In this document: one piece after another, positions 16,428 to 26,568 of the stretch
Layout: every line of letters begins with the position of its first letter
Position numbering within the stretch: position 1 is the stretch's first letter
Assembly: GCA_048940925.1 (NCBI GenBank)
Contig: JBHLOC010000002.1
Coordinates: 192,001 to 256,000, forward strand
Source: Promethearchaeota archaeon
GTDB taxonomy: Archaea; Asgardarchaeota; Lokiarchaeia; Sigyniarchaeales; SOKP01
Direction of reading: 5' to 3'
DNA: 64,000 bases
Notes under the pieces: generated by a model
The model's input: the letters and a program-made list of their open reading frames with translations, nothing else
Database searches by the model: none
What the model was told of the DNA's origin: nothing
Program-made: the position numbers and the translations under genes

Positions 16428-17978
16428 ATGAATCTTAAAGAACTAGTAGAAACTCAGGCAGAAACGTATAAAGATAAAACATTTTTATATTGGGAAGATA
16501 AAACTGTTTCTTACTCTCAATTGAATGAGCTTACAAATAAAGTAGCTAATTTTTTATATGAATTAGGAATCAGAAAAGGAGATAAAGTAAGTGTTTACCT
16601 CCCAAATATGCCTGAATATGTATATCTTTATCTAGGTATTCCTAAAATCGGTGCGATTACTGGTCCTGTAAACGCACTGTTTAAAACTCGAGAGGTAAAA
16701 TTTGTAGTAGGGCATTCAGAAGCAAAAGTTTTGATCACAATCCCAAATTTTATGGATTTAGTAAATGAAATTAAAAGTGATCTACCTAATTTGAAACACA
16801 TCATAGTAATCGGAGAACCTATGGAGCATACATTAAATTTTTGGGAATTAATGGATAAAGCTTCAACAAATACTCCTCCTGAAGTGATTATTAATGAAAG
16901 AGAGGATCCCGCGGCAATTATCTATACATCAGGAACCACAGGATTTCCTAAAGGAGTATTACAAACCCACTTTAACATCAGGAGAAATGGTGAAATGATT
17001 CAAGAGTTTTTAAAAGCGAGAGAAGATTTTCGATTTATGTTAATTTTACCACTTTTCCATGTTAATGCTCAAGTTGTAACAGTCATGGCGCCTTTAACTA
17101 TCGGAGCTAGTTGTATATTAACTCCTGGATTCTCAGCTCAAACACACTGGGAAATTGTAGCAAAATATAAAGCATCTACGTTTAGTGCAGTGCCAACAGT
17201 GCTTTCTATATTACTTAGAATGCCACATGAAAATCTCGATCTTTCTTCATTAGAATTTGTTATTTGTGGGGCGGCTCCTTTACCTGTGGAGGTGTTCAGG
17301 GAATTTGAGAATACATTTAATTGTAAAGTTATAGAAGGGTATGGTCTTACAGAGGGCACATGCGCTTCTTCAGTTAACCCTTTGCCTACTGAAACAGAAG
17401 ATAGACGAAAAATTGGTAGTATCGGCTTACCTCTCCCTGGGAATGAAATGAAAATTGTAGACGATAAAGGTAATGATGTTCCCCCTAACACTAAAGGTGA
17501 AATTGTGATTAAAGGTGATAATATTATGAAAGAATATTTTAAAAATCCAGAAGCAAATGCTGAGACTCTCAAGGATGGCTGGTTATATACAGGCGATATT
17601 GGACATATGGATGAAGACGGATTTTTTTATATCACAGATCGTAAAAAAGATATGATCATTCGAGGTGGAGAAAATATATATCCTAGAGAAATAGAAGAAG
17701 TGCTTTATGCTCATCCTGATGTGTCATTAGCAACTGTTATTGGGGTACGAGATGAGATCTATGGAGAACTTCCCAAAGCATTTATAGTATTAAAAGAAAG
17801 AAAATCTCTAACTACCGATGATATTATTGAACATTGTAAGAAAAATCTCGCTAATTTTAAAGTTCCAAAGTATGTAGAGTTTAGGAATGATCTTCCTAAG
17901 ACACCGACAGGGAAGATAATGAAACAACCTCTCCGAGAAGAAGAAGAAGAAAAAACTGGAAAGATCTTTAATTCTTAA
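16428..17978 (+). CDS. Long-chain fatty-acid--CoA ligase (AMP-forming)
   Basis: YTSGTTGFPKG, EGYGLTE, TGDIG, DRKKDMIIRGGENIYP, LPKTPTGK. Confidence 0.92.
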   Translation: MNLKELVETQAETYKDKTFLYWEDKTVSYSQLNELTNKVANFLYELGIRKGDKVSVYLPNMPEYVYLYLGIPKIGAITGPVNALFKTREVKFVVGHSEAKVLITIPNFMDLVNEIKSDLPNLKHIIVIGEPMEHTLNFWELMDKASTNTPPEVIINEREDPAAIIYTSGTTGFPKGVLQTHFNIRRNGEMIQEFLKAREDFRFMLILPLFHVNAQVVTVMAPLTIGASCILTPGFSAQTHWEIVAKYKASTFSAVPTVLSILLRMPHENLDLSSLEFVICGAAPLPVEVFREFENTFNCKVIEGYGLTEGTCASSVNPLPTETEDRRKIGSIGLPLPGNEMKIVDDKGNDVPPNTKGEIVIKGDNIMKEYFKNPEANAETLKDGWLYTGDIGHMDEDGFFYITDRKKDMIIRGGENIYPREIEEVLYAHPDVSLATVIGVRDEIYGELPKAFIVLKERKSLTTDDIIEHCKKNLANFKVPKYVEFRNDLPKTPTGKIMKQPLREEEEEKTGKIFNS

Positions 17979-18182
17979 TCTTTTTCAAATTTTACTATTT
18001 TTTTTTAGATTAGATTTCAATAATTAGAGAATTTATAAAAAACCTGCATTCCAATATGAATATTTAAAAGCTTAGTTTTATATTTAAATTCAAAAGAAAT
18101 TCAATATTAACATATTTTAAATTAAGATATGCATTAAATATATTACAAAAATTAATCTAATGTCATTAGGAGCTGTGTTAAA

Positions 18183-19862
18183 ATTATAAAAAAGAGAACG
18201 ATTTTAATTGTAGTTTTCGCAATAACATCTGTTATTGTTCAGTTATTTGGAATTCCATATTTAGGTATTAAATCTACATCTCATGACCTTGAATTCGAAT
18301 ATGTCTATAATTGGGACTTAACAGGAACAGGAGGATGGTACGACGGATATAAAGAGACTTTTAGAGCAAAAGGACATTACACTATTGATTTTAATGGGAA
18401 TTTTGCGAATGTAACTGCTCGCGTTTCATGGAAATTTTCTGAAAACTATTATGGTTCTTCCCAAAAAAGCGTAGATACTTATGAGTTTTCATATTCGCTA
18501 GATAATGGTGCGTATATATGGGGAACTGACCAAGATGTCCTTAACACAACTAATATGAATGTTTGGTTTCATATTCCTGGAGGGATTAAAGCTCCTCAAT
18601 ATGATATTCTCGATACTTCATATAAAGTAATCAGTGGAGAACATCTTATTTGGGTTGGATATTTAATGCCTTTTAGTGGAAAGAAACTTCATAGTGAGGG
18701 CCAATATTTTCGAGATGATGAGCTTGGGAAATTTGATGCTAAATATAGAGTAGATAATTTCTTTACGAAAAATGGTTATTTAATTGGAGAGATTTATACA
18801 GAAACAGATGATGGTTACGATAGAGACACGGGAGATTGGTCCGAATTTAAATTGAATTCCTATGTCTTCATTACATCTTCTAGTTATCTAAGACCTTTTA
18901 ATTTTGGAATGTACTTTTTAGCATACTGGGGACCTATATTATTTTTTATGATTCTTTTTTACGTAGTATATGAAAACCTCCGCTGGAAATCAAGGATAAT
19001 TCCCAAAGGAGATATAGAAATTGTTGTTGAAAGAAATCTTCCTAACTTTGTGAAATTTGAAATACAATCTGCTTATTCAGAAATGATACCATCCTATTTA
19101 GTTAGAGCAAGATCTCATGATAAGAGAATTATTAGTGCTCATAAAAATGGAGTAGTAGAAGGAATAGGATTTATTGAACCAAATGGGAAAATCGGTACAT
19201 TTTATGGTAACTACATCTGGGATATGATAAACTATACAAAAGTAAAATACGCATTCACTGAAATTGGAAGGAATTTAAAAGGTTTTCGCACAATCGAAAA
19301 ATATAATATCCTTGAAATTAATAATCTCCAGCAAAGAGATTTAAGTTTTGACACTGCTCATATTAAACCTGTTGAGGAGAAACATCTAGATGCCATCATG
19401 AAAATGGTCGCAAATGAAGATAGAGGTAAAAAAAGCAAGAAATATGCAAAATGGGTTTCTAAATCTTATGAGGATGATATCGCAGTTATAGCTACTGCTT
19501 CAAGCACAGAAACATGGGTTCAGTCTATAATGTCGGATTTATATCAGAGTAAATATCCTAAACCAGAATCTATAGCTAATGAAATAATATTGGGTGTAGG
19601 TTTTACTACTCCTGGAGAAGAAACTGGATGGTTATATGGACTTTACGTCCATCCTGCTTTTAGAAATCATGGGCTAGGGAGAACACTTGTATTAGCCCGA
19701 CTTTCAGCGCTCAAGGAAATAGGATGTATACGAGCAATTACAGAAATTGCTGAATGGAATAGTCCTGCTAAAAAGATATATGATGATTATAATGCTCAAA
19801 TAGTAGGTACAATATATCTTTTAGGTAAAAAGATGCCAAAAGTTAAGGTGAGACACTACTGA
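18183..19862 (+). CDS. Membrane-anchored protein: signal peptide, extracellular beta-rich domain, TM helix, cytoplasmic GNAT acetyltransferase; longer than the ORF track call
   Basis: Frame open from 18156; KIIKKRTILIVVFAITSVIV signal-like N-terminus behind AGGAG; GNAT motif LYVHPAFRNHGLGRTL; exact start uncertain. Confidence 0.75.
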   Translation: MIKKRTILIVVFAITSVIVQLFGIPYLGIKSTSHDLEFEYVYNWDLTGTGGWYDGYKETFRAKGHYTIDFNGNFANVTARVSWKFSENYYGSSQKSVDTYEFSYSLDNGAYIWGTDQDVLNTTNMNVWFHIPGGIKAPQYDILDTSYKVISGEHLIWVGYLMPFSGKKLHSEGQYFRDDELGKFDAKYRVDNFFTKNGYLIGEIYTETDDGYDRDTGDWSEFKLNSYVFITSSSYLRPFNFGMYFLAYWGPILFFMILFYVVYENLRWKSRIIPKGDIEIVVERNLPNFVKFEIQSAYSEMIPSYLVRARSHDKRIISAHKNGVVEGIGFIEPNGKIGTFYGNYIWDMINYTKVKYAFTEIGRNLKGFRTIEKYNILEINNLQQRDLSFDTAHIKPVEEKHLDAIMKMVANEDRGKKSKKYAKWVSKSYEDDIAVIATASSTETWVQSIMSDLYQSKYPKPESIANEIILGVGFTTPGEETGWLYGLYVHPAFRNHGLGRTLVLARLSALKEIGCIRAITEIAEWNSPAKKIYDDYNAQIVGTIYLLGKKMPKVKVRHY

Positions 19863-21067
19863 ATGAAAATGTAACTTACCATTCACTTTATCATCAAAAA
19901 TTACTAAATTCTGTTAATTTTAATTTATTCAAGATTGAACCTGAGGCGATTGAGATTAATAAGCAATTTAAATTACCGGAGGAATGGTATTCTGCCTATT
20001 TAGGACCAGCTACTGCTGAATTTCATGGATTAACTCATAAATCTCAACCAGCACTTAGAGACGAAAATAGAAATGCAATTATCCCAGAATATTTTATTGA
20101 GATTGGAGGAAAAATTATCTATTTATCAGTGAAAGGGTGTGGAGCTTATGAGGATATGTTTTTTGGAGGAAAATTAAACCAGAGCAAAATAAAAAATGCA
20201 TGTCGAGATTCAAAACATCTAGCTAAAATTGAGACATTATCTACGAGTCTAGGTTTCATAATGGGAGAGTCTTGGATGGGTGAAAGTCCATATGGTGCCC
20301 AAGGTTTTATAAACGGATATGATGAGCTTAAATTTTCTAGAATTGCCGAATTGGATAATATTAACGGAGCTTATATATGCCCCTCAATAGCAGTTATTAA
20401 GCTACCAAAAGAAATTGAAAAAGTGGCTAGAAAATTCTTTTGGTTTAGAACATATAAAGATCATTTTTATCAAGTTCTGCGCCTAGTTCCATCAAATATA
20501 CGTTTGTATTTTGAATCATCTCACAATATTGCTAATCCAAGTCCAGTTTTTCAGTTATTCGAGATTGACACTATAGAAAGAGCAGAAAATTTTGAATTGA
20601 ATTTTATAAAAAGTGGAATCGCACTTTTAACACTTTATACACGATCAGCAATAATAGAAGGAAATGAAATTAAGGGTATTTATTATCAAGATGTATGGTT
20701 AGATAAAGACTGTGTAGTAGCACCGAATGGAATAATTCATTTTGCAGATATTGAAGGATTTATTTGGAAAAAAGTGACTATTGATGAATATAAAGAGATT
20801 CAGAAAAAAGAATGGCAGAAATTAGTATATGAGTTTCTATATGCATTGGTTCAAATCGATTCTTATCGCCATTCATTGGACGAACGTCAAATTTCTTGGG
20901 AACGACAAAGAGAAGAACTAGAAATCCTTATTTATGAAGCTTTAAATAAAGATTTTTTTACTAATGTAGAAAATATTAATGGAAATTTAACTATCATAAT
21001 AGAGGGCAAAGATTTACCCTCCATTGAAATGCCAATACTAGAAAAGGTGATCAAGTTTGATATGTGA
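19859..21067 (+). CDS. SelO/YdiU-like kinase-fold protein, probable CTG start
   Basis: Frame open from 19847; GGTGA then CTG overlapping the upstream TGA; motifs DENRNA, LSVKGCG, RLVPSNIR, ADIEG. Confidence 0.6.
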   Translation: MNENVTYHSLYHQKLLNSVNFNLFKIEPEAIEINKQFKLPEEWYSAYLGPATAEFHGLTHKSQPALRDENRNAIIPEYFIEIGGKIIYLSVKGCGAYEDMFFGGKLNQSKIKNACRDSKHLAKIETLSTSLGFIMGESWMGESPYGAQGFINGYDELKFSRIAELDNINGAYICPSIAVIKLPKEIEKVARKFFWFRTYKDHFYQVLRLVPSNIRLYFESSHNIANPSPVFQLFEIDTIERAENFELNFIKSGIALLTLYTRSAIIEGNEIKGIYYQDVWLDKDCVVAPNGIIHFADIEGFIWKKVTIDEYKEIQKKEWQKLVYEFLYALVQIDSYRHSLDERQISWERQREELEILIYEALNKDFFTNVENINGNLTIIIEGKDLPSIEMPILEKVIKFDM

Positions 21068-22568
21068 GAGAGCTTTAGAGATATTAAGTTCTATAAAAGA
21101 TAAACATAATCTTATGACTTCATTTGAAGAGATTTCTGAATTAAAAGAAAACAATTTGATTTCAGAATTCAAAGCTAATATCCCCAAGACGTCAAGAGAT
21201 TATGACTTAACTAGTCTAAAAAGAAAGTATGTGAAGTTATCTAATGATATAAGACAAGCTTATCAAAATTTAGTAACATTAGAGGGTGATTTTAATCATG
21301 TATCAACGTTGTCCCGCTTTTTTTCTTATCTAAAAATGGGAAGAGGAGCAACACTAAAAAAAGATATATCTGATTTACATCAATTCATCGAAAATAAAGA
21401 AGCTGATCTGAAAAAATTGAAAAATGAACTGTTAAAACTTAATAGAGAAATTGAATCTCATGAAAGAGCAGTTAAGGTAAATGGTATTAGAGTTTTTCTT
21501 ACCCCCATAGGTGAGACAATTATTGATGAAATAAAAGCTCGAAGGAGATTCTATACTCGAGAATTAAAAGAGCTAATTATTGTATTAAAGAATTTAGATG
21601 ATACATTCACCATGCTTATCGACAATATTGGTACTATTATGAGAACAAATAATTTCTCACCCATATGGGCGTTATATCTTCTTAATACAAATATGCTAAA
21701 TCTATCTAAAATTCTGAATATAATTACGCTACGTGAACGTAATTATAATAACGCACAAAAAAGAATGATGAATTTATCATTTTTTCTCATGAATCATCCA
21801 GAAATAATGATTCCAAGGAATAATCGTGAAGCAAAGATTACTGAGAATGAATTTAAATATACGTATCCCGAAAACGAATATAAAAGAATGTTTCATGAAA
21901 TCCTTAATAATGCAAATATATCAACTTATAAAATAAGAACAGCTATCTCGTTATTGGGTAAATTTTTCACAATATGGGGTTCAAAAAATGAGGTAAATAG
22001 AAATATTATTAAGCAATATTATGAAAATCTTAGAATCTTCATAGATTTTCAAAGAGATTTACCAATGATCGGAAAGAAGACAATTCTTTATCAGCATTTA
22101 AAGCAAAATATTGATGAGGAAATGATATTTGTCTTGTTAATTTTAGCTTTTTCCACTAAATTGGATTCTTATAATTATTTCTACGAAATTATTGAAGATA
22201 TACCTGAAGGTACGAAATTTTTTTCAGCAATCTCCTCATTATTCCCATGGGACCCTGAAGAGACATGGAGAGTATTATTGCGCGCACAATCAAACATACT
22301 AAAAGCTCAAAGTGCAAAATTTATTCCAGAATTAATGGAATATGCTATTCTAATGTGTTTAAATCCCAATGTATTATTAATAGAAAATAATATCTCACAA
22401 GAGCAACTGGCTAAATGGAAATTTTTAATAAATCCTGTTATACATCTTAGCATATACTCTTTCTTCGAACAAGATTTAGAAACTTACATAAGGAGAAGAC
22501 CTTTAGCATATATTATAGCACCAATGTATTATCATCATTCTATGCTTCATTACCACTCTATAGGTTAA
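21057..22568 (+). CDS. Hypothetical protein with N-terminal coiled coil and His-rich C-terminus
   Basis: TTG start behind GGTGA, overlaps previous gene; heptad-rich aa 50-140; ends YYHHSMLHYHSIG. Confidence 0.7.
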   Translation: MICERALEILSSIKDKHNLMTSFEEISELKENNLISEFKANIPKTSRDYDLTSLKRKYVKLSNDIRQAYQNLVTLEGDFNHVSTLSRFFSYLKMGRGATLKKDISDLHQFIENKEADLKKLKNELLKLNREIESHERAVKVNGIRVFLTPIGETIIDEIKARRRFYTRELKELIIVLKNLDDTFTMLIDNIGTIMRTNNFSPIWALYLLNTNMLNLSKILNIITLRERNYNNAQKRMMNLSFFLMNHPEIMIPRNNREAKITENEFKYTYPENEYKRMFHEILNNANISTYKIRTAISLLGKFFTIWGSKNEVNRNIIKQYYENLRIFIDFQRDLPMIGKKTILYQHLKQNIDEEMIFVLLILAFSTKLDSYNYFYEIIEDIPEGTKFFSAISSLFPWDPEETWRVLLRAQSNILKAQSAKFIPELMEYAILMCLNPNVLLIENNISQEQLAKWKFLINPVIHLSIYSFFEQDLETYIRRRPLAYIIAPMYYHHSMLHYHSIG

Positions 22569-22665: not shown

Positions 22666-24336
22666 CTATTCAATCAACCTTAAATAGTCACTATTAATTG
22701 AAGTAGCTAAGGAATCATAGAAAAAAGAATAATATTTTTGATAGAAATCTTTCTTTTGTTTCAAAATGATTGAGCTCTCATCTTTTTCTATGATACCCTT
22801 TGTCCAAAGAATCTTACCTTGATGTGACAAATCTAACCTATCTCGATTTTTTATAATTTCACCAGATTTTATAACATATTCAATATCTTTTAATGAATTT
22901 TTTATTACTTCATACTGTTTAGCTGTATCGATATTATTAAGATCGATATCTAAAATATTGATATCAGCATCAGCACCAATACCCAAATTTCCTTTTATAT
23001 TTCCTAAACCAAGAGATTTAGCTGGACTAGCTCGACTTAAAATAATAAATTCGTAAAACGATAAAATATTATTTGATTCTGATAAAAACTCTTTGAATTT
23101 AAAACTTCTCGTCATGTCTTTCATAAATTTTATTCTAGCATCACTACTTAACAACCATGTAGCAACTTCCGCAATATCATTTATATTCCCATAATTTGGA
23201 TAGTTAAGAGATAGTTGAACTTTCCACTTATCTTTAATATTTAGAGCAAGACCTATTCCATTTGCCCACATTAAGCAATGATTTTCATTATTCTTATCAA
23301 AATTCCTAAATTTTACAAATGAATCCCCTTCAAATTCTACAGCAGATCTAATTAGTATATTATGTTCGTTTTCAAATTTTAATTCTTTTGCAATTAACTT
23401 TCTATCAGACGTGATCAAGGGATTAATTTTATTAAATGTAAGAAATCCAATATCTAGGTCTATTTTATTGGATTGATTGATAATATTAATTAGTTCAGCA
23501 TTATCCTCCTCGATAATATATGCAGAAGCATGAGCAAGATGAAAAATTTGGGATCTTGGATTTTTAGATTTTTCCTTTAATTGGGGAACTTTGTCTAAAG
23601 AATTTATTTTGTCTAGTATAAGGGAATAATTACCTTTTGCATACTCGGTCTCATAACCTTCAATATGAGCATGAATTGAATGCGGTAATCCCATATGTTC
23701 ATTAGCTTTTGCTAAGTTTTCATAAACATCTAGAGCTGAGAAATTGTAGAGTCGACCTGAGGCTTTGAGATCATTTCTTATCTCTTTAAAGTTCCAATCT
23801 TCAGACTCAAAAGGATTATAGACTTTAAGACCAAAAGCTTTAGTTTTTTGCATTAAATCAGATAAAAATATACTTAACTCATCTATTTTCCCTCTCTGAA
23901 ACTCTAATTCTAAAGCCCAAAAATTACTGACATTTAATAACATCCCCTTATCAAGAACAGGTAAATGGGTAAAGTCAAATAATGTTTGTTTTGATAAGGA
24001 GGGGAAAACATTCGCTTCAAGAATAAAAGTGTAACCATTATTTATATAATCCCGAGCTATTTTTTCAAGTGTTAGACCCTGCCATATTTTTTTAAATAAG
24101 GAATTTTTTGTTCCGATTAGTCTAACCCAATTTACTTGTTGAGATGCAATATGAGTATGAATATCCAATGCACCAGGAATAACTGTTTTACCTTGAGCAT
24201 CTATTTCTTTTACATCACTTGGATTAGAAAATTTTTCGACAATAAATTCGCCCTCAATTAGTATATCCTTCTTTTCACCCTCAATATTGTTAAGAGGATC
24301 AAATACCAATCCATTCTTAATAATTAATTTAGACAT
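22666..24336 (-). CDS. fwdA: Formylmethanofuran dehydrogenase subunit A-like amidohydrolase (divergent)
   Basis: IIKNGLVFDPLN, DIHTHIA, GLPHSIH, GNLGIGADADI; adjacent fwdD/B. Confidence 0.8.
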   Translation of the reverse strand: MSKLIIKNGLVFDPLNNIEGEKKDILIEGEFIVEKFSNPSDVKEIDAQGKTVIPGALDIHTHIASQQVNWVRLIGTKNSLFKKIWQGLTLEKIARDYINNGYTFILEANVFPSLSKQTLFDFTHLPVLDKGMLLNVSNFWALELEFQRGKIDELSIFLSDLMQKTKAFGLKVYNPFESEDWNFKEIRNDLKASGRLYNFSALDVYENLAKANEHMGLPHSIHAHIEGYETEYAKGNYSLILDKINSLDKVPQLKEKSKNPRSQIFHLAHASAYIIEEDNAELINIINQSNKIDLDIGFLTFNKINPLITSDRKLIAKELKFENEHNILIRSAVEFEGDSFVKFRNFDKNNENHCLMWANGIGLALNIKDKWKVQLSLNYPNYGNINDIAEVATWLLSSDARIKFMKDMTRSFKFKEFLSESNNILSFYEFIILSRASPAKSLGLGNIKGNLGIGADADINILDIDLNNIDTAKQYEVIKNSLKDIEYVIKSGEIIKNRDRLDLSHQGKILWTKGIIEKDESSIILKQKKDFYQKYYSFFYDSLATSINSDYLRLIE

Positions 24337-24353
24337 TTTTAAACTTAGTTTGT

Positions 24354-24728
24354 TTATGTTACCTTAATTGAACTTATAATATCTTCAAAACTTAATATCG
24401 GTTCTTGGGTTAATTCCACATTTACTTCAATATTTTTAAAAATTAATTCACCATTTTCAACACCTGTAATTTGATTAGACCAGATTGATACTGGCATTAT
24501 AATAATCCCATTTGGAACATCTTCTTTCTGTCTAACATTTACTGTAATCTGACCGAATTTACTACTCAATTTTACATTTGATTTCTCTGTTAATTTTAAT
24601 TTTTCCATATCTCTGGGATTAAATAAACCTATTGCCAAATTTTCTTTGAGGGAATCATTATCTCCAGCCATAAATTCCCTTAATTGATCATAATCAACCA
24701 TTCTTACAGTATTTACAATCATTTTCAT
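24354..24728 (-). CDS. fwdD: Formylmethanofuran dehydrogenase subunit D-like
   Basis: NPRDMEKL, SKFGQITV, VPNGIIIMP..IWSN; position between fwdB and fwdA. Confidence 0.8.
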   Translation of the reverse strand: MKMIVNTVRMVDYDQLREFMAGDNDSLKENLAIGLFNPRDMEKLKLTEKSNVKLSSKFGQITVNVRQKEDVPNGIIIMPVSIWSNQITGVENGELIFKNIEVNVELTQEPILSFEDIISSIKVT

Positions 24729-24743
24729 CTAAAACACTACTTT

Positions 24744-26042
24744 TTATGACTTTTTTATTTCTTCTAATAGTAAGGTCAATATCTCTTCATCAGTCTTAAC
24801 ATTACTTGGCGCATTTATAACTTTCTTTAATTCAATAGGGATATGATCTAATCTATAAGCTAATCCCGAACATTCTATACCTGTAATTGCCGATGGTAAT
24901 ATCACATCAGCTATTTGAGAGGTAGCAGATTTCTTATTATCTATCAAAATTAATGGTTTTGCAGCTAATTTTTTACTCAATTGGATTGGTAAATGCGAAA
25001 TTGGATCAGTCCCTACAATTAACGAACTATCAAAATCTTCATTCTTGACTTTTGCGATAACATTATCTGAGGTCTCTGAAAGTTTGTTGTTAATAAATTG
25101 TAAACTATTATTTTTCCCATAACTTGATAATGCGACATGTTCGAATCCTGCCATGTTATAATGCCCACCCAGCATAACGACTGAAATGCGACCTTTTTGT
25201 TGTTTTTCATTAATTATCTGAACCAGTTCTAATAATGCATGGATTACACTGGAACCTGATTGAGTTTTTAATATTCCTTGTCCTATAAAAATAACTCCAT
25301 ATTCTGATCCAGTTAGATGAAGTAATATCCTTTTTAAATCATTAGTATCTATACCTGCAACGCTATGTTCTGGAATACTTCCTTCAGTACAACATTCCTC
25401 CTTTAAAACTTTGATTAATTCAATATCTTTTCCTGGCTCAATATTTAAAGCAATATCTCTGACACCCATGACACCGAAAGAAGCTGTTTTCATTGGATCC
25501 AAAGCTATTAACGTTTTTATTTCTCTTCCTGTCATTCTAAACTTACCACGCGAAAATAGAACCTTATTTAGTAGACGTGGAATTGATTCAGCGACATTTG
25601 CACCCCACAAAATTAATAAATCTGCTTTATTTATGAGTTCAGTGATTGTTGTTAAAGTAATCCCTGTTTCTTTTGCAGTATCTAATACTTTTCCTTGACA
25701 TATAGTAGAATTTGAATCAATAAAGCCATTTATAAGCTTTGCCAATTTAATTCCTTCAAATTGTGCTTCACAACTACTCGTTGAGAATCCATATAATACT
25801 GGATTGGTTGATTGTTTAAGAATATCAACAGTTTTATCGATTGCCTCATCCCAAGAGCTTTTTTCTAATTTTCCATTTTTACGAACCATGGGTGATAATA
25901 TACGATTTTTTGCTGTAACTTGATCAAATCTTTCTTTTCCTTTTAAACATGCTCCTACAACCTCATCAATATATAGTCCATCGCTTCTTATAATTATATC
26001 ATCACATAATAAAGAACAACCTGAACAAGGTATTCTTTTCAT
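24744..26042 (-). CDS. fwdB: Formylmethanofuran dehydrogenase subunit B-like (divergent)
   Basis: CSGCSLLCDDI, ADLLILWGAN, GHYNMAG, GIECSGLAYRLD. Confidence 0.85.
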   Translation of the reverse strand: MKRIPCSGCSLLCDDIIIRSDGLYIDEVVGACLKGKERFDQVTAKNRILSPMVRKNGKLEKSSWDEAIDKTVDILKQSTNPVLYGFSTSSCEAQFEGIKLAKLINGFIDSNSTICQGKVLDTAKETGITLTTITELINKADLLILWGANVAESIPRLLNKVLFSRGKFRMTGREIKTLIALDPMKTASFGVMGVRDIALNIEPGKDIELIKVLKEECCTEGSIPEHSVAGIDTNDLKRILLHLTGSEYGVIFIGQGILKTQSGSSVIHALLELVQIINEKQQKGRISVVMLGGHYNMAGFEHVALSSYGKNNSLQFINNKLSETSDNVIAKVKNEDFDSSLIVGTDPISHLPIQLSKKLAAKPLILIDNKKSATSQIADVILPSAITGIECSGLAYRLDHIPIELKKVINAPSNVKTDEEILTLLLEEIKKS

Positions 26043-26082
26043 AGATTTTACCTCTTATTAAAAATTAAATAATTAAGATATT

Positions 26083-26568
26083 TTATACGTAATCAATTTT
26101 TACAGCTTCGCGAGGACAATAAGTTTCACATACACGACATTCTCTTTCTCTTCCCTCTGCTTCAATTCTCCTACAGTGCTCTAAATTTAACAATTCGCAT
26201 TTACCTGCTTTAATCTGAAATAATTGATGCTTTTCAGGAGGATAATCAGGTGCTTTTCCACTTAGAGTTGGAGGGCAATATCTAGCATTCACAGGACAAA
26301 CTGTGACACAAATTCCGCATCCATCGCATAAATCTGTATCTACATCAATTCTTAATTCTTTTTCTTTACCCTCCTCAGTGCCTAACATCTCCTTTAGGGT
26401 ATCATAATTCTTTTTATATTTCGGTTCTAAAAGAGGAGTACAATCATCAATTTTTACTTTACCTTGTAGTAAATCTAATGCGAATGCCATACATGTTGGC
26501 TTTCCACATTTTTTGCAATTAGTTTTTGGCAGAAATTTATAAAGTTCCATAAAGTTATTAACGGGAAT
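26083..26568 (-). CDS. Fe-S protein (LPKTNC..CG..TC domain plus 4Fe-4S ferredoxin domain; FwdG-like)
   Basis: CKKCGKPTCMAFA, CDGCGICVTVCP, CRVCETYCP; start is either ATG 26550 or ATT 26568. Confidence 0.8.
   Translation of the reverse strand: MPVNNFMELYKFLPKTNCKKCGKPTCMAFALDLLQGKVKIDDCTPLLEPKYKKNYDTLKEMLGTEEGKEKELRIDVDTDLCDGCGICVTVCPVNARYCPPTLSGKAPDYPPEKHQLFQIKAGKCELLNLEHCRRIEAEGRERECRVCETYCPREAVKIDYV

Follow-up and report, generated by a model that had tools for sequence, protein, structure and literature searches.

A predicted SelO-like protein family encoded with a membrane-anchored GNAT acyltransferase and a protein with a conserved His/Gly tail in an undescribed archaeal gene cassette

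We describe a gene cassette of archaea found in a 64,000-nucleotide stretch of a Promethearchaeota archaeon genome (assembly GCA_048940925.1, contig JBHLOC010000002.1, positions 192,001 to 256,000 of the forward strand), referred to below as the window. Three frames on the plus strand, all open, encode a membrane protein that ends in a GNAT acyltransferase (gene 1), a soluble protein of 402 residues (gene 2) and a second soluble protein with a His-rich end (gene 3). On the strength of its predicted structure we class gene 2 as a new and divergent SelO-like family within an undescribed cassette. The original prediction, which was made from the letters of the window alone, had called the system undescribed, and this is borne out in that neither a paper nor a model in Pfam, NCBIfam or PADLOC was found for gene 2 or gene 3; nor did the literature yield a paper joining Asgard archaea with SelO or kinase-like families. 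What we add to that prediction is the ranking of SelO by exhaustive structural alignment, the match of an arginine pair, the recognition of a split architecture of the cassette and the precedent of MceIJ.

SelO-type AMPylases have been described as bacterial and mitochondrial and as rare in archaea, in which a few Euryarchaeota hold them by transfer (PMC3281104). The gene 2 family would represent a second, archaeal branch of SelO-like enzymes, one that is invisible to profile searches. Relatives of gene 2 occur in at least 269 genomes at the species level. The enzyme always comes together with an acetyltransferase, an input module in the membrane and a candidate substrate with an invariant tail and, because the cassette thus brings its own candidate partner and substrate, the chemistry of a new enzyme with a kinase fold would be directly testable with purified parts.

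Results

The predicted fold of gene 2 is closest to SelO

Sequence and profile searches of Pfam, NCBIfam, PADLOC and the PDB returned no match for gene 2, and its family is small: clustering at 50% identity leaves 87 representatives in a set of 1.8 billion proteins. An AlphaFold2 model built on an alignment of 56 sequences reached a pLDDT of 95.6 and a pTM of 0.93. The top Foldseek matches of this model in the PDB were SelO/YdiU structures (E values of 2e-4 to 1e-3, probability up to 1.0), so that the SelO-like kinase fold proposed in the original prediction emerged at high confidence. In an exhaustive VIA-align comparison, SelO of P. syringae (6eac) came first of 48,161 chains, with a Z of 15.4 and an rmsd of 4.0 Å over 269 residues, followed by NIS synthetases at a Z of about 11-12 and then by protein kinases at 9.6 or below. 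A second VIA-align comparison gave the same order, with all seven SelO/YdiU entries at 14.4-15.3, NIS synthetases at 9.5-12.6 and eukaryotic-type kinases at no more than 9.9, and a SelO cluster of the ESM Atlas matched gene 2 with a TM of 0.53. Thus SelO/YdiU (PF02696; PDB 6eac, 6k20, 6iii and 6lna) is the best structural match of gene 2, at a Z of 14.4-15.4 over some 265 residues of the kinase-like core. Comparison of gene 2 with SelO as single sequences was also tried and was discarded as meaningless. As judged from the model, SelO is the nearest fold of gene 2, which has no membership of the SelO family at the level of sequence.

Gene 2 and SelO also present their motifs in the same order, namely D/G-x-x-R, K-G-x-G, (S/T)-P-Y, R-x2-P-S-x2-R and D-x-x-G, and the motifs from which the original prediction had argued for SelO/YdiU are both present and nearly invariant. 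Across the 56-sequence alignment, which spans members as little as 20% identical overall, R71, G93, P211 and D297 are found in all 56 sequences, K92, R208, R215 and D284 in 55 and S212 in 54. K92 lies in a V-K-G-x-G motif, R208 and R215 in R-x2-P-S-x2-R and D297 in D-[IL]-E-G. Because the residues predicted to bind nucleotide and metal are kept in 55-56 of the 56 sequences at identities down to 20%, the active site is likely under selection.

In SelO, K113, E136, R176 and R183 hold the gamma-phosphate of a flipped ATP, and N253 and D262 bind magnesium (PMC8097203). A permissive hhalign of E. coli SelO with gene 2 recovered three collinear blocks at a P of 0.034, which is not significant. In the first block, D-x-N-R...K-G-x-G of gene 2 falls on G-D-G-R...K-G-x-G of SelO, with K92 on K107 of the E. 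coli protein; in the second and third, E137 is paired with E. coli E130, and R208, S212 and R215 with R170, S174 and R177. Based on the motifs and on this low-confidence profile alignment, gene 2 is predicted to keep the lysine and the arginine pair with which SelO holds the gamma-phosphate of flipped ATP.

The modules of the cassette occur together in three archaeal phyla

In a scan of one genome per species, covering 185,579 species, 269 held a relative of gene 2; 80 of the loci were fetched and, with three from other assemblies, made up a set of 83. The fused order, in which an outside-domain-GNAT fusion is followed by gene 2 and gene 3, was found in 34 of the 83, and a split order, in which gene 2 and gene 3 are followed by an outside-domain protein and by a GNAT on the other strand, in 37; the remaining loci are truncated at the ends of their contigs. 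Every untruncated locus has the complete set of four modules, namely the outside domain, the GNAT, gene 2 and gene 3. In the split loci, for example L063 (7654-8727), the outside-domain gene ends past its membrane helix in a cytoplasmic zinc ribbon and not in a GNAT, and the GNAT is a gene of 200-220 aa on the opposite strand. The fused order belongs to Asgard archaea and Methanomassiliicoccales, and the split order to Thermoplasmata and Bathyarchaeia. In a quick gene 2 tree the loci of split order form a single clade (support 100), with Bathyarchaeia nested among Thermoplasmata, and the Asgard and Methanomassiliicoccales branches carry the fused order. The genes that flank the cassette vary from lineage to lineage, and no extra neighbour is conserved across the lineages of the examined loci. 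The co-conservation whose absence would have told against the original prediction thus extends over three archaeal phyla with unrelated flanks.

Within Asgard archaea the cassette is patchy. It was found in eight of the 151 genomes searched, all of one order, and in one of four other genomes of the same genus as that of the window; for each of the three proteins, the nearest relatives belong to metagenome-assembled genomes (MAGs) of Loki-type Asgard archaea. Plasmid and phage collections held no match to gene 2, and the three proteins had no match among the PADLOC defence models at an E value up to 0.1. Canonical SelO (PF02696) was detected neither in the 4.8-Mb genome that holds the window nor in the 151 Asgard genomes, and the same profile did find matches in four control genomes. 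This absence from the Asgard genomes searched agrees with the published rarity of SelO in archaea.

Two observations concern the labels attached to the carriers. Locus L073 (DASPTR010000040.1) is labelled Candidatus Acidoferrum, a bacterium, and holds a Bathyarchaeia-type cassette that falls inside the Bathyarchaeia clade of the tree; it is probably a mis-binned contig or a wrong label and not a transfer to bacteria. The NCBI names of the carrier MAGs span Promethearchaeota, Hermod-, Hod-, Odin-, Thor- and Heimdallarchaeota, whereas our GTDB-based sample puts the Asgard carriers in one order, and submitter names look unreliable as a guide to the taxonomic range of the cassette.

Gene 3 has a disordered tail that ends in an invariant glycine

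In the model of gene 3 a coiled-coil hairpin (residues 44-137) interrupts a winged helix; a helical domain (170-470) follows, and the chain ends in a disordered tail (473-503). The original prediction had correctly read a long coiled coil and a His-rich end from the letters. No family could be assigned: Pfam and NCBIfam gave rows below threshold only, PADLOC gave nothing, Foldseek with the whole model found nothing below an E value of 0.001 and the ESM Atlas held no usable match. VIA-align with the whole model matched the coiled-coil hairpin alone (Z of about 10), which is a generic match. Relatives from other phyla are about 15% identical to gene 3, yet H498 and H500 are invariant among them, and all 73 complete relatives end in a glycine preceded by H-x-H. 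The tail is often Gly-rich and takes the forms LHYHxIG, HPxHxHTVPxFG and HPxHxHGxGG...G. At the other end, the relatives begin with M-x-C-E-R in the column of the TTG first codon; the cysteine at position 3 was considered as a defining feature and rejected, being common but absent in several clades.

We also modelled gene 2 and gene 3 together. The predicted complex scored 0.51, against 0.00 for the best of three controls; runs agreed in at least 38% of contacts, and the partner pLDDT was at least 73. Of 80 solved complexes, 58 reach the mark set for this score, as do two of 110 mismatched pairs, but scores of 0.60 or less among those that reach it come from just seven of the 80 solved complexes and from both of the passing mismatches. 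With the operon linkage taken as prior, the model lends weak support to a contact between gene 2 and gene 3, which is mildly favoured.

Gene 1 combines an outside domain with a GNAT

The C-terminal 170 residues of gene 1 are a GNAT domain (PF00583, 38.7 bits against a cut-off of 20.7), in which R503, G506 and G508 of the acetyl-CoA motif are invariant among 16 diverse relatives. Matches of this domain in the PDB, to polyamine and thialysine N-acetyltransferases, were weak. Two hydrophobic segments, at residues 13-38 and 250-273 of the translation counted from 18156, surround the domain upstream of it, as expected from the receptor-like layout given in the original prediction, and this domain should face outward because KKR precedes the first segment. 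Pfam assigned neither the outside domain nor the linker to a family, and the ESM Atlas returned low scores only for the outside domain, at most 0.80, with DUF3108 at 0.76. Gene 1 is similar to the sensor-linked protein acetyltransferases, in which GNATs are fused to regulatory domains, in that its GNAT keeps the acetyl-CoA site intact and is joined to a putative input domain. In contrast to those, however, its input domain is extracytoplasmic and is separated from the GNAT by a membrane helix, and in half of the lineages with the cassette the input domain is encoded separately, by a gene whose product ends in a zinc ribbon.

Genes 1 and 2 appear to start at non-canonical codons

The three genes overlap at their stop and start codons, as the original prediction had stated. 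The stop of gene 1 (TGA, 19860-19862) shares the letters CTGA with the first codon of gene 2 (CTG, 19859), and gene 3 overlaps gene 2 by 11 nt, its TTG at 21057 starting 11 nt ahead of the end of the gene 2 stop (21065-21067). GGTGA sits 7-8 nt upstream of the starts of both gene 2 and gene 3. In relatives of gene 2 the column of the first codon holds CTG or TTG, always overlapping the TGA and with GGTGA 8 nt upstream.

The start of gene 1 had been set at 18156 in the original prediction. The plus-strand frame is indeed open there, but 18156 is merely the first codon past an in-frame TAA, and comparison with relatives moves the start to 18186 or 18183. The frame contains no ATG, GTG or TTG between 18156 and 18555, and the relatives, of about 557 aa, align over their whole length from the first hydrophobic segment onward. 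The start column (18186, ATA in the window) holds ATG in L013, L024, L026 and L029, and more distant relatives have ATG in this column together with stops upstream. A conserved ATT (18183 in the window), an AGGAG and a TATA-like box precede the column. The start of gene 1 is therefore likely ATA at 18186, or else ATT at 18183, as read from the aligned relatives. Taken together, the alignments suggest that two consecutive genes start at non-canonical codons, as AUU or AUA appears to be used in gene 1 and CUG in gene 2. A frameshift or homopolymer error was considered as an explanation for the absent start codons, there being an ATG in the +1 frame 4 nt past the first codon of both genes. This was ruled out, since the +1-frame ATGs are not conserved and the start columns toggle between CTG and TTG in gene 2 and among ATA, ATT and ATG in gene 1. 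Public records give the gene 2 product as 312 aa, compared with 402 aa here, and several relatives of gene 1 as 435 or 483 aa; the public calls for genes 1 and 2 would be cut short because their starts are AUA or AUU and CUG. The features of the locus are collected in Table 1.

Table 1. Features of the cassette and of the region upstream of gene 1, in positions of the window
Feature	Position	Strand	Basis
A/T-rich TATA-like box TTTTAAATTAAGATA, putative promoter element	18115..18130	+	near letter-for-letter conservation in close relatives upstream of gene 1
Shine-Dalgarno-like AGGAG	18168..18172	+	kept in relatives L005-L011, ~14 nt ahead of the start column
Gene 1, bitopic membrane protein: outside domain and cytoplasmic GNAT acyltransferase	18186..19862	+	frame open from 18156; relatives ~557 aa
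Gene 1 first hydrophobic segment (signal anchor or signal peptide), KKR before it	18192..18269	+	Kyte-Doolittle, residues 13-38
Gene 1 outside domain, aromatic-rich, ~210 residues	18270..18902	+	between two hydrophobic segments; conserved Gly, Tyr and Trp columns
Gene 1 second transmembrane segment	18903..18974	+	Kyte-Doolittle, residues 250-273
Gene 1 GNAT domain, acetyl-CoA motif R503-x-x-G506-x-G508 intact	19353..19859	+	PF00583
Gene 2, 402-aa soluble enzyme, SelO-like protein-kinase-like fold	19859..21067	+	AlphaFold2 model; SelO/YdiU closest
Gene 3, 503-aa soluble protein: split winged helix, coiled-coil hairpin, helical domain, disordered tail	21057..22568	+	AlphaFold2 pLDDT 83.7
Gene 3 coiled-coil hairpin, residues 44-137	21186..21467	+	DSSP on model
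Gene 3 disordered C-terminal tail, ending ...HHSMLHYHSIG	22473..22565	+	pLDDT <50, residues 473-503

Discussion

Gene 2 most probably works like SelO. Going further, we propose that it is a SelO-type enzyme that transfers a nucleotide monophosphate and acts with the GNAT on or with the gene 3 protein at the membrane, a proposal that we consider evenly poised between right and wrong. In our model, the gene 1 protein would hold its domain of about 210 residues outside the cell and its GNAT, an acyl-CoA acyltransferase, inside. Because gene 2 keeps the lysine of K-G-x-G, the R-x2-P-S-x2-R pair and a putative metal-binding aspartate, we infer that it binds ATP in the flipped orientation of SelO, and in this orientation it would transfer a nucleotide monophosphate and not the terminal phosphate. 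The gene 3 protein would be the most likely partner or substrate of gene 2, with the side chain of a tail histidine or tyrosine, or else the terminal carboxylate, as acceptor. The GNAT would add an acyl group to the gene 3 protein or to a shared target, and through the outside domain the activity may be coupled to a cue at the surface of the cell. Unlike SelO, gene 2 always has a GNAT, an outside-domain membrane module and gene 3 encoded alongside it.

Several points weigh against a SelO-like activity of gene 2. The Pfam SelO model (PF02696) does not match it at an E value up to 1, a profile search of the PDB found nothing, and comparison of the gene 2 family by hhalign with eight SelO sequences, aligned for this analysis, gave a P of 0.034, which is not significant. 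Gene 2 is about 80 residues shorter overall than SelO, from which it differs by a 45-residue insertion after K-G-x-G and by the lack of the SelO C-terminal domain and of its redox Cys/Sec motif, the C-x-x-C/U end. Its catalytic loop is W-L-D-K-D where SelO has H-G-V-x-N-T-D-N; hhalign left this loop unaligned, and no asparagine equivalent to N253 of SelO could be assigned in the gene 2 alignment; D284 in L-D-K-D may stand in for it. Moreover, likeness of fold does not give chemistry, and the next-best matches of gene 2, the NIS synthetases, adenylate carboxylates.

The latter point leads to a different use of the same fold, in which gene 2 would adenylate the carboxylate of the terminal glycine of the gene 3 protein and its GNAT-fold partner would pass the C-terminus to a nucleophile, in the manner of MceIJ/MchCD. 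We regard this as unlikely, and as similarly doubtful each of the candidates for the nucleophile, whether the head group of a lipid, an amine of a protein or some small molecule at the membrane. The reading has a precedent in MchC/MceJ, a distant SelO subfamily found in complex with the HlyC-like acyltransferase MchD/MceI (PMC3281104); acyltransferases of the HlyC type have a GNAT-like fold (PMC8339906), and the MchC/MchD pair attaches a siderophore to a microcin precursor at its Ser/Gly-rich C-terminus (PMC7472721). In both cases, then, a GNAT-fold acyltransferase has a divergent SelO-like protein as its partner, and the enterobacterial pair acts on the flexible Gly/Ser-rich C-terminus of a polypeptide encoded nearby; we liken gene 2 to MchC/MceJ from their published description, as a functional analogy. 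Further points in favour are the last residue of gene 3, a glycine on a disordered and often Gly-rich tail in all 73 complete relatives in spite of an identity of about 15%, and the standing of the carboxylate-adenylating NIS synthetases as the next-best fold after SelO. Taken together, the precedent, the NIS fold match and the invariant glycine leave room for a model in which the gene 3 protein is adenylated at its C-terminus, which is then transferred and, if the terminal glycine is the acceptor, this would be a new way of activating protein C-termini.

However, the enterobacterial pair has an HlyC-type acyltransferase, a short exported microcin as substrate and a siderophore to attach. The GNAT of the cassette is of the classical acetyl-CoA type with an intact CoA motif, and in Pfam gene 1 matched classical GNAT models only and not HlyC (PF02794). 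The gene 3 protein has some 500 residues and is not a short exported peptide. In addition, the two tail histidines are as invariant as the glycine, and a side-chain acceptor or a metal site would explain the tail equally well. A more far-reaching form, in which the cassette is a system of C-terminal activation and conjugation built on a kinase fold instead of an E1, with gene 2 adenylating the glycine of gene 3 and the membrane GNAT transferring it, strikes us as distinctly unlikely. The same low probability attaches to its further steps, in which the outside-domain protein would position the GNAT at the membrane and the acceptor would be an amine or a hydroxyl, for example that of a membrane lipid head group. 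If true, it would represent a ubiquitin-like or Atg8-like logic of independent origin in archaea.

Three other readings are less likely than a SelO-like enzyme. Gene 2 could be an ordinary phosphotransferase, a kinase of proteins or small molecules, so that the cassette would pair phosphorylation with the acetylation by the GNAT. Its fold is indeed protein-kinase-like, many kinases match it at a Z of 8-10, and its invariant lysine, its D-K-D loop and its D-[IL]-E-G resemble the catalytic and DFG loops of kinases. Nevertheless, SelO/YdiU scores 5 Z-units above every kinase, and the gene 2 alignment contains no H-R-D catalytic loop with a downstream asparagine. The R-x2-P-S-x2-R pair, moreover, matches the SelO residues on the adenine pocket side that hold the gamma-phosphate. 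We therefore think an ordinary kinase improbable.

The second of these readings is one of small-molecule biosynthesis. NIS synthetases (IucA/IucC, AcsD, SbnC, DesD and DfoC) are ATP-dependent enzymes that adenylate carboxylates via AMP intermediates, and DfoC is such a synthetase naturally fused to an acyltransferase. The GNAT and an NIS-synthetase-like, adenylating gene 2 might make an amide- or ester-linked metabolite, as in the aerobactin or desferrioxamine pathways, in which enzymes of the IucA/IucC type act together with an acyltransferase, and the gene 3 protein might then serve as a scaffold, a regulator or a metal-binding partner; we hold the pathway to be very unlikely, and the same is true of this role for gene 3. 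NIS synthetases, DfoC included, match almost the whole gene 2 model at a Z of 10-12.6, which makes them its second-best fold, and the His-rich tail of gene 3 could bind metal. Yet SelO is the closer fold, and NIS synthetases are larger, with extra N-terminal domains that gene 2 lacks. Gene 2 has no IucA/IucC or FhuF match in Pfam, there are no siderophore-pathway genes near the cassette, and no monooxygenase, decarboxylase or exporter is conserved beside it. Finally, that gene 2 is a non-catalytic pseudoenzyme scaffolding the GNAT and the gene 3 protein is highly improbable for, while it has no detectable sequence similarity to active families and many divergent kinase-fold proteins are inactive, every expected nucleotide- or metal-binding residue is kept in 55-56 of 56 sequences at identities down to 20%.

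The surroundings of the cassette in the window, which has a G+C content of about 30%, include formylmethanofuran-dehydrogenase-like genes, a TreT-like glycosyltransferase and an acyl-CoA synthetase. The last of these, an AMP-binding acyl-CoA synthetase (16428-17978, plus strand), is encoded in the same direction as gene 1 and some 200 nt ahead of it. An acyl-CoA for the GNAT could come from this enzyme, which is absent among the neighbour families that recur across the examined loci. On the other side, a formylmethanofuran-dehydrogenase-like cluster on the minus strand (22666-26550), comprising an FwdA-like amidohydrolase, Molydop_binding and Molybdopterin proteins and an Fe-S protein, converges on gene 3. 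Synteny between this Fwd-like cluster and the cassette is limited to some 17 Asgard loci.

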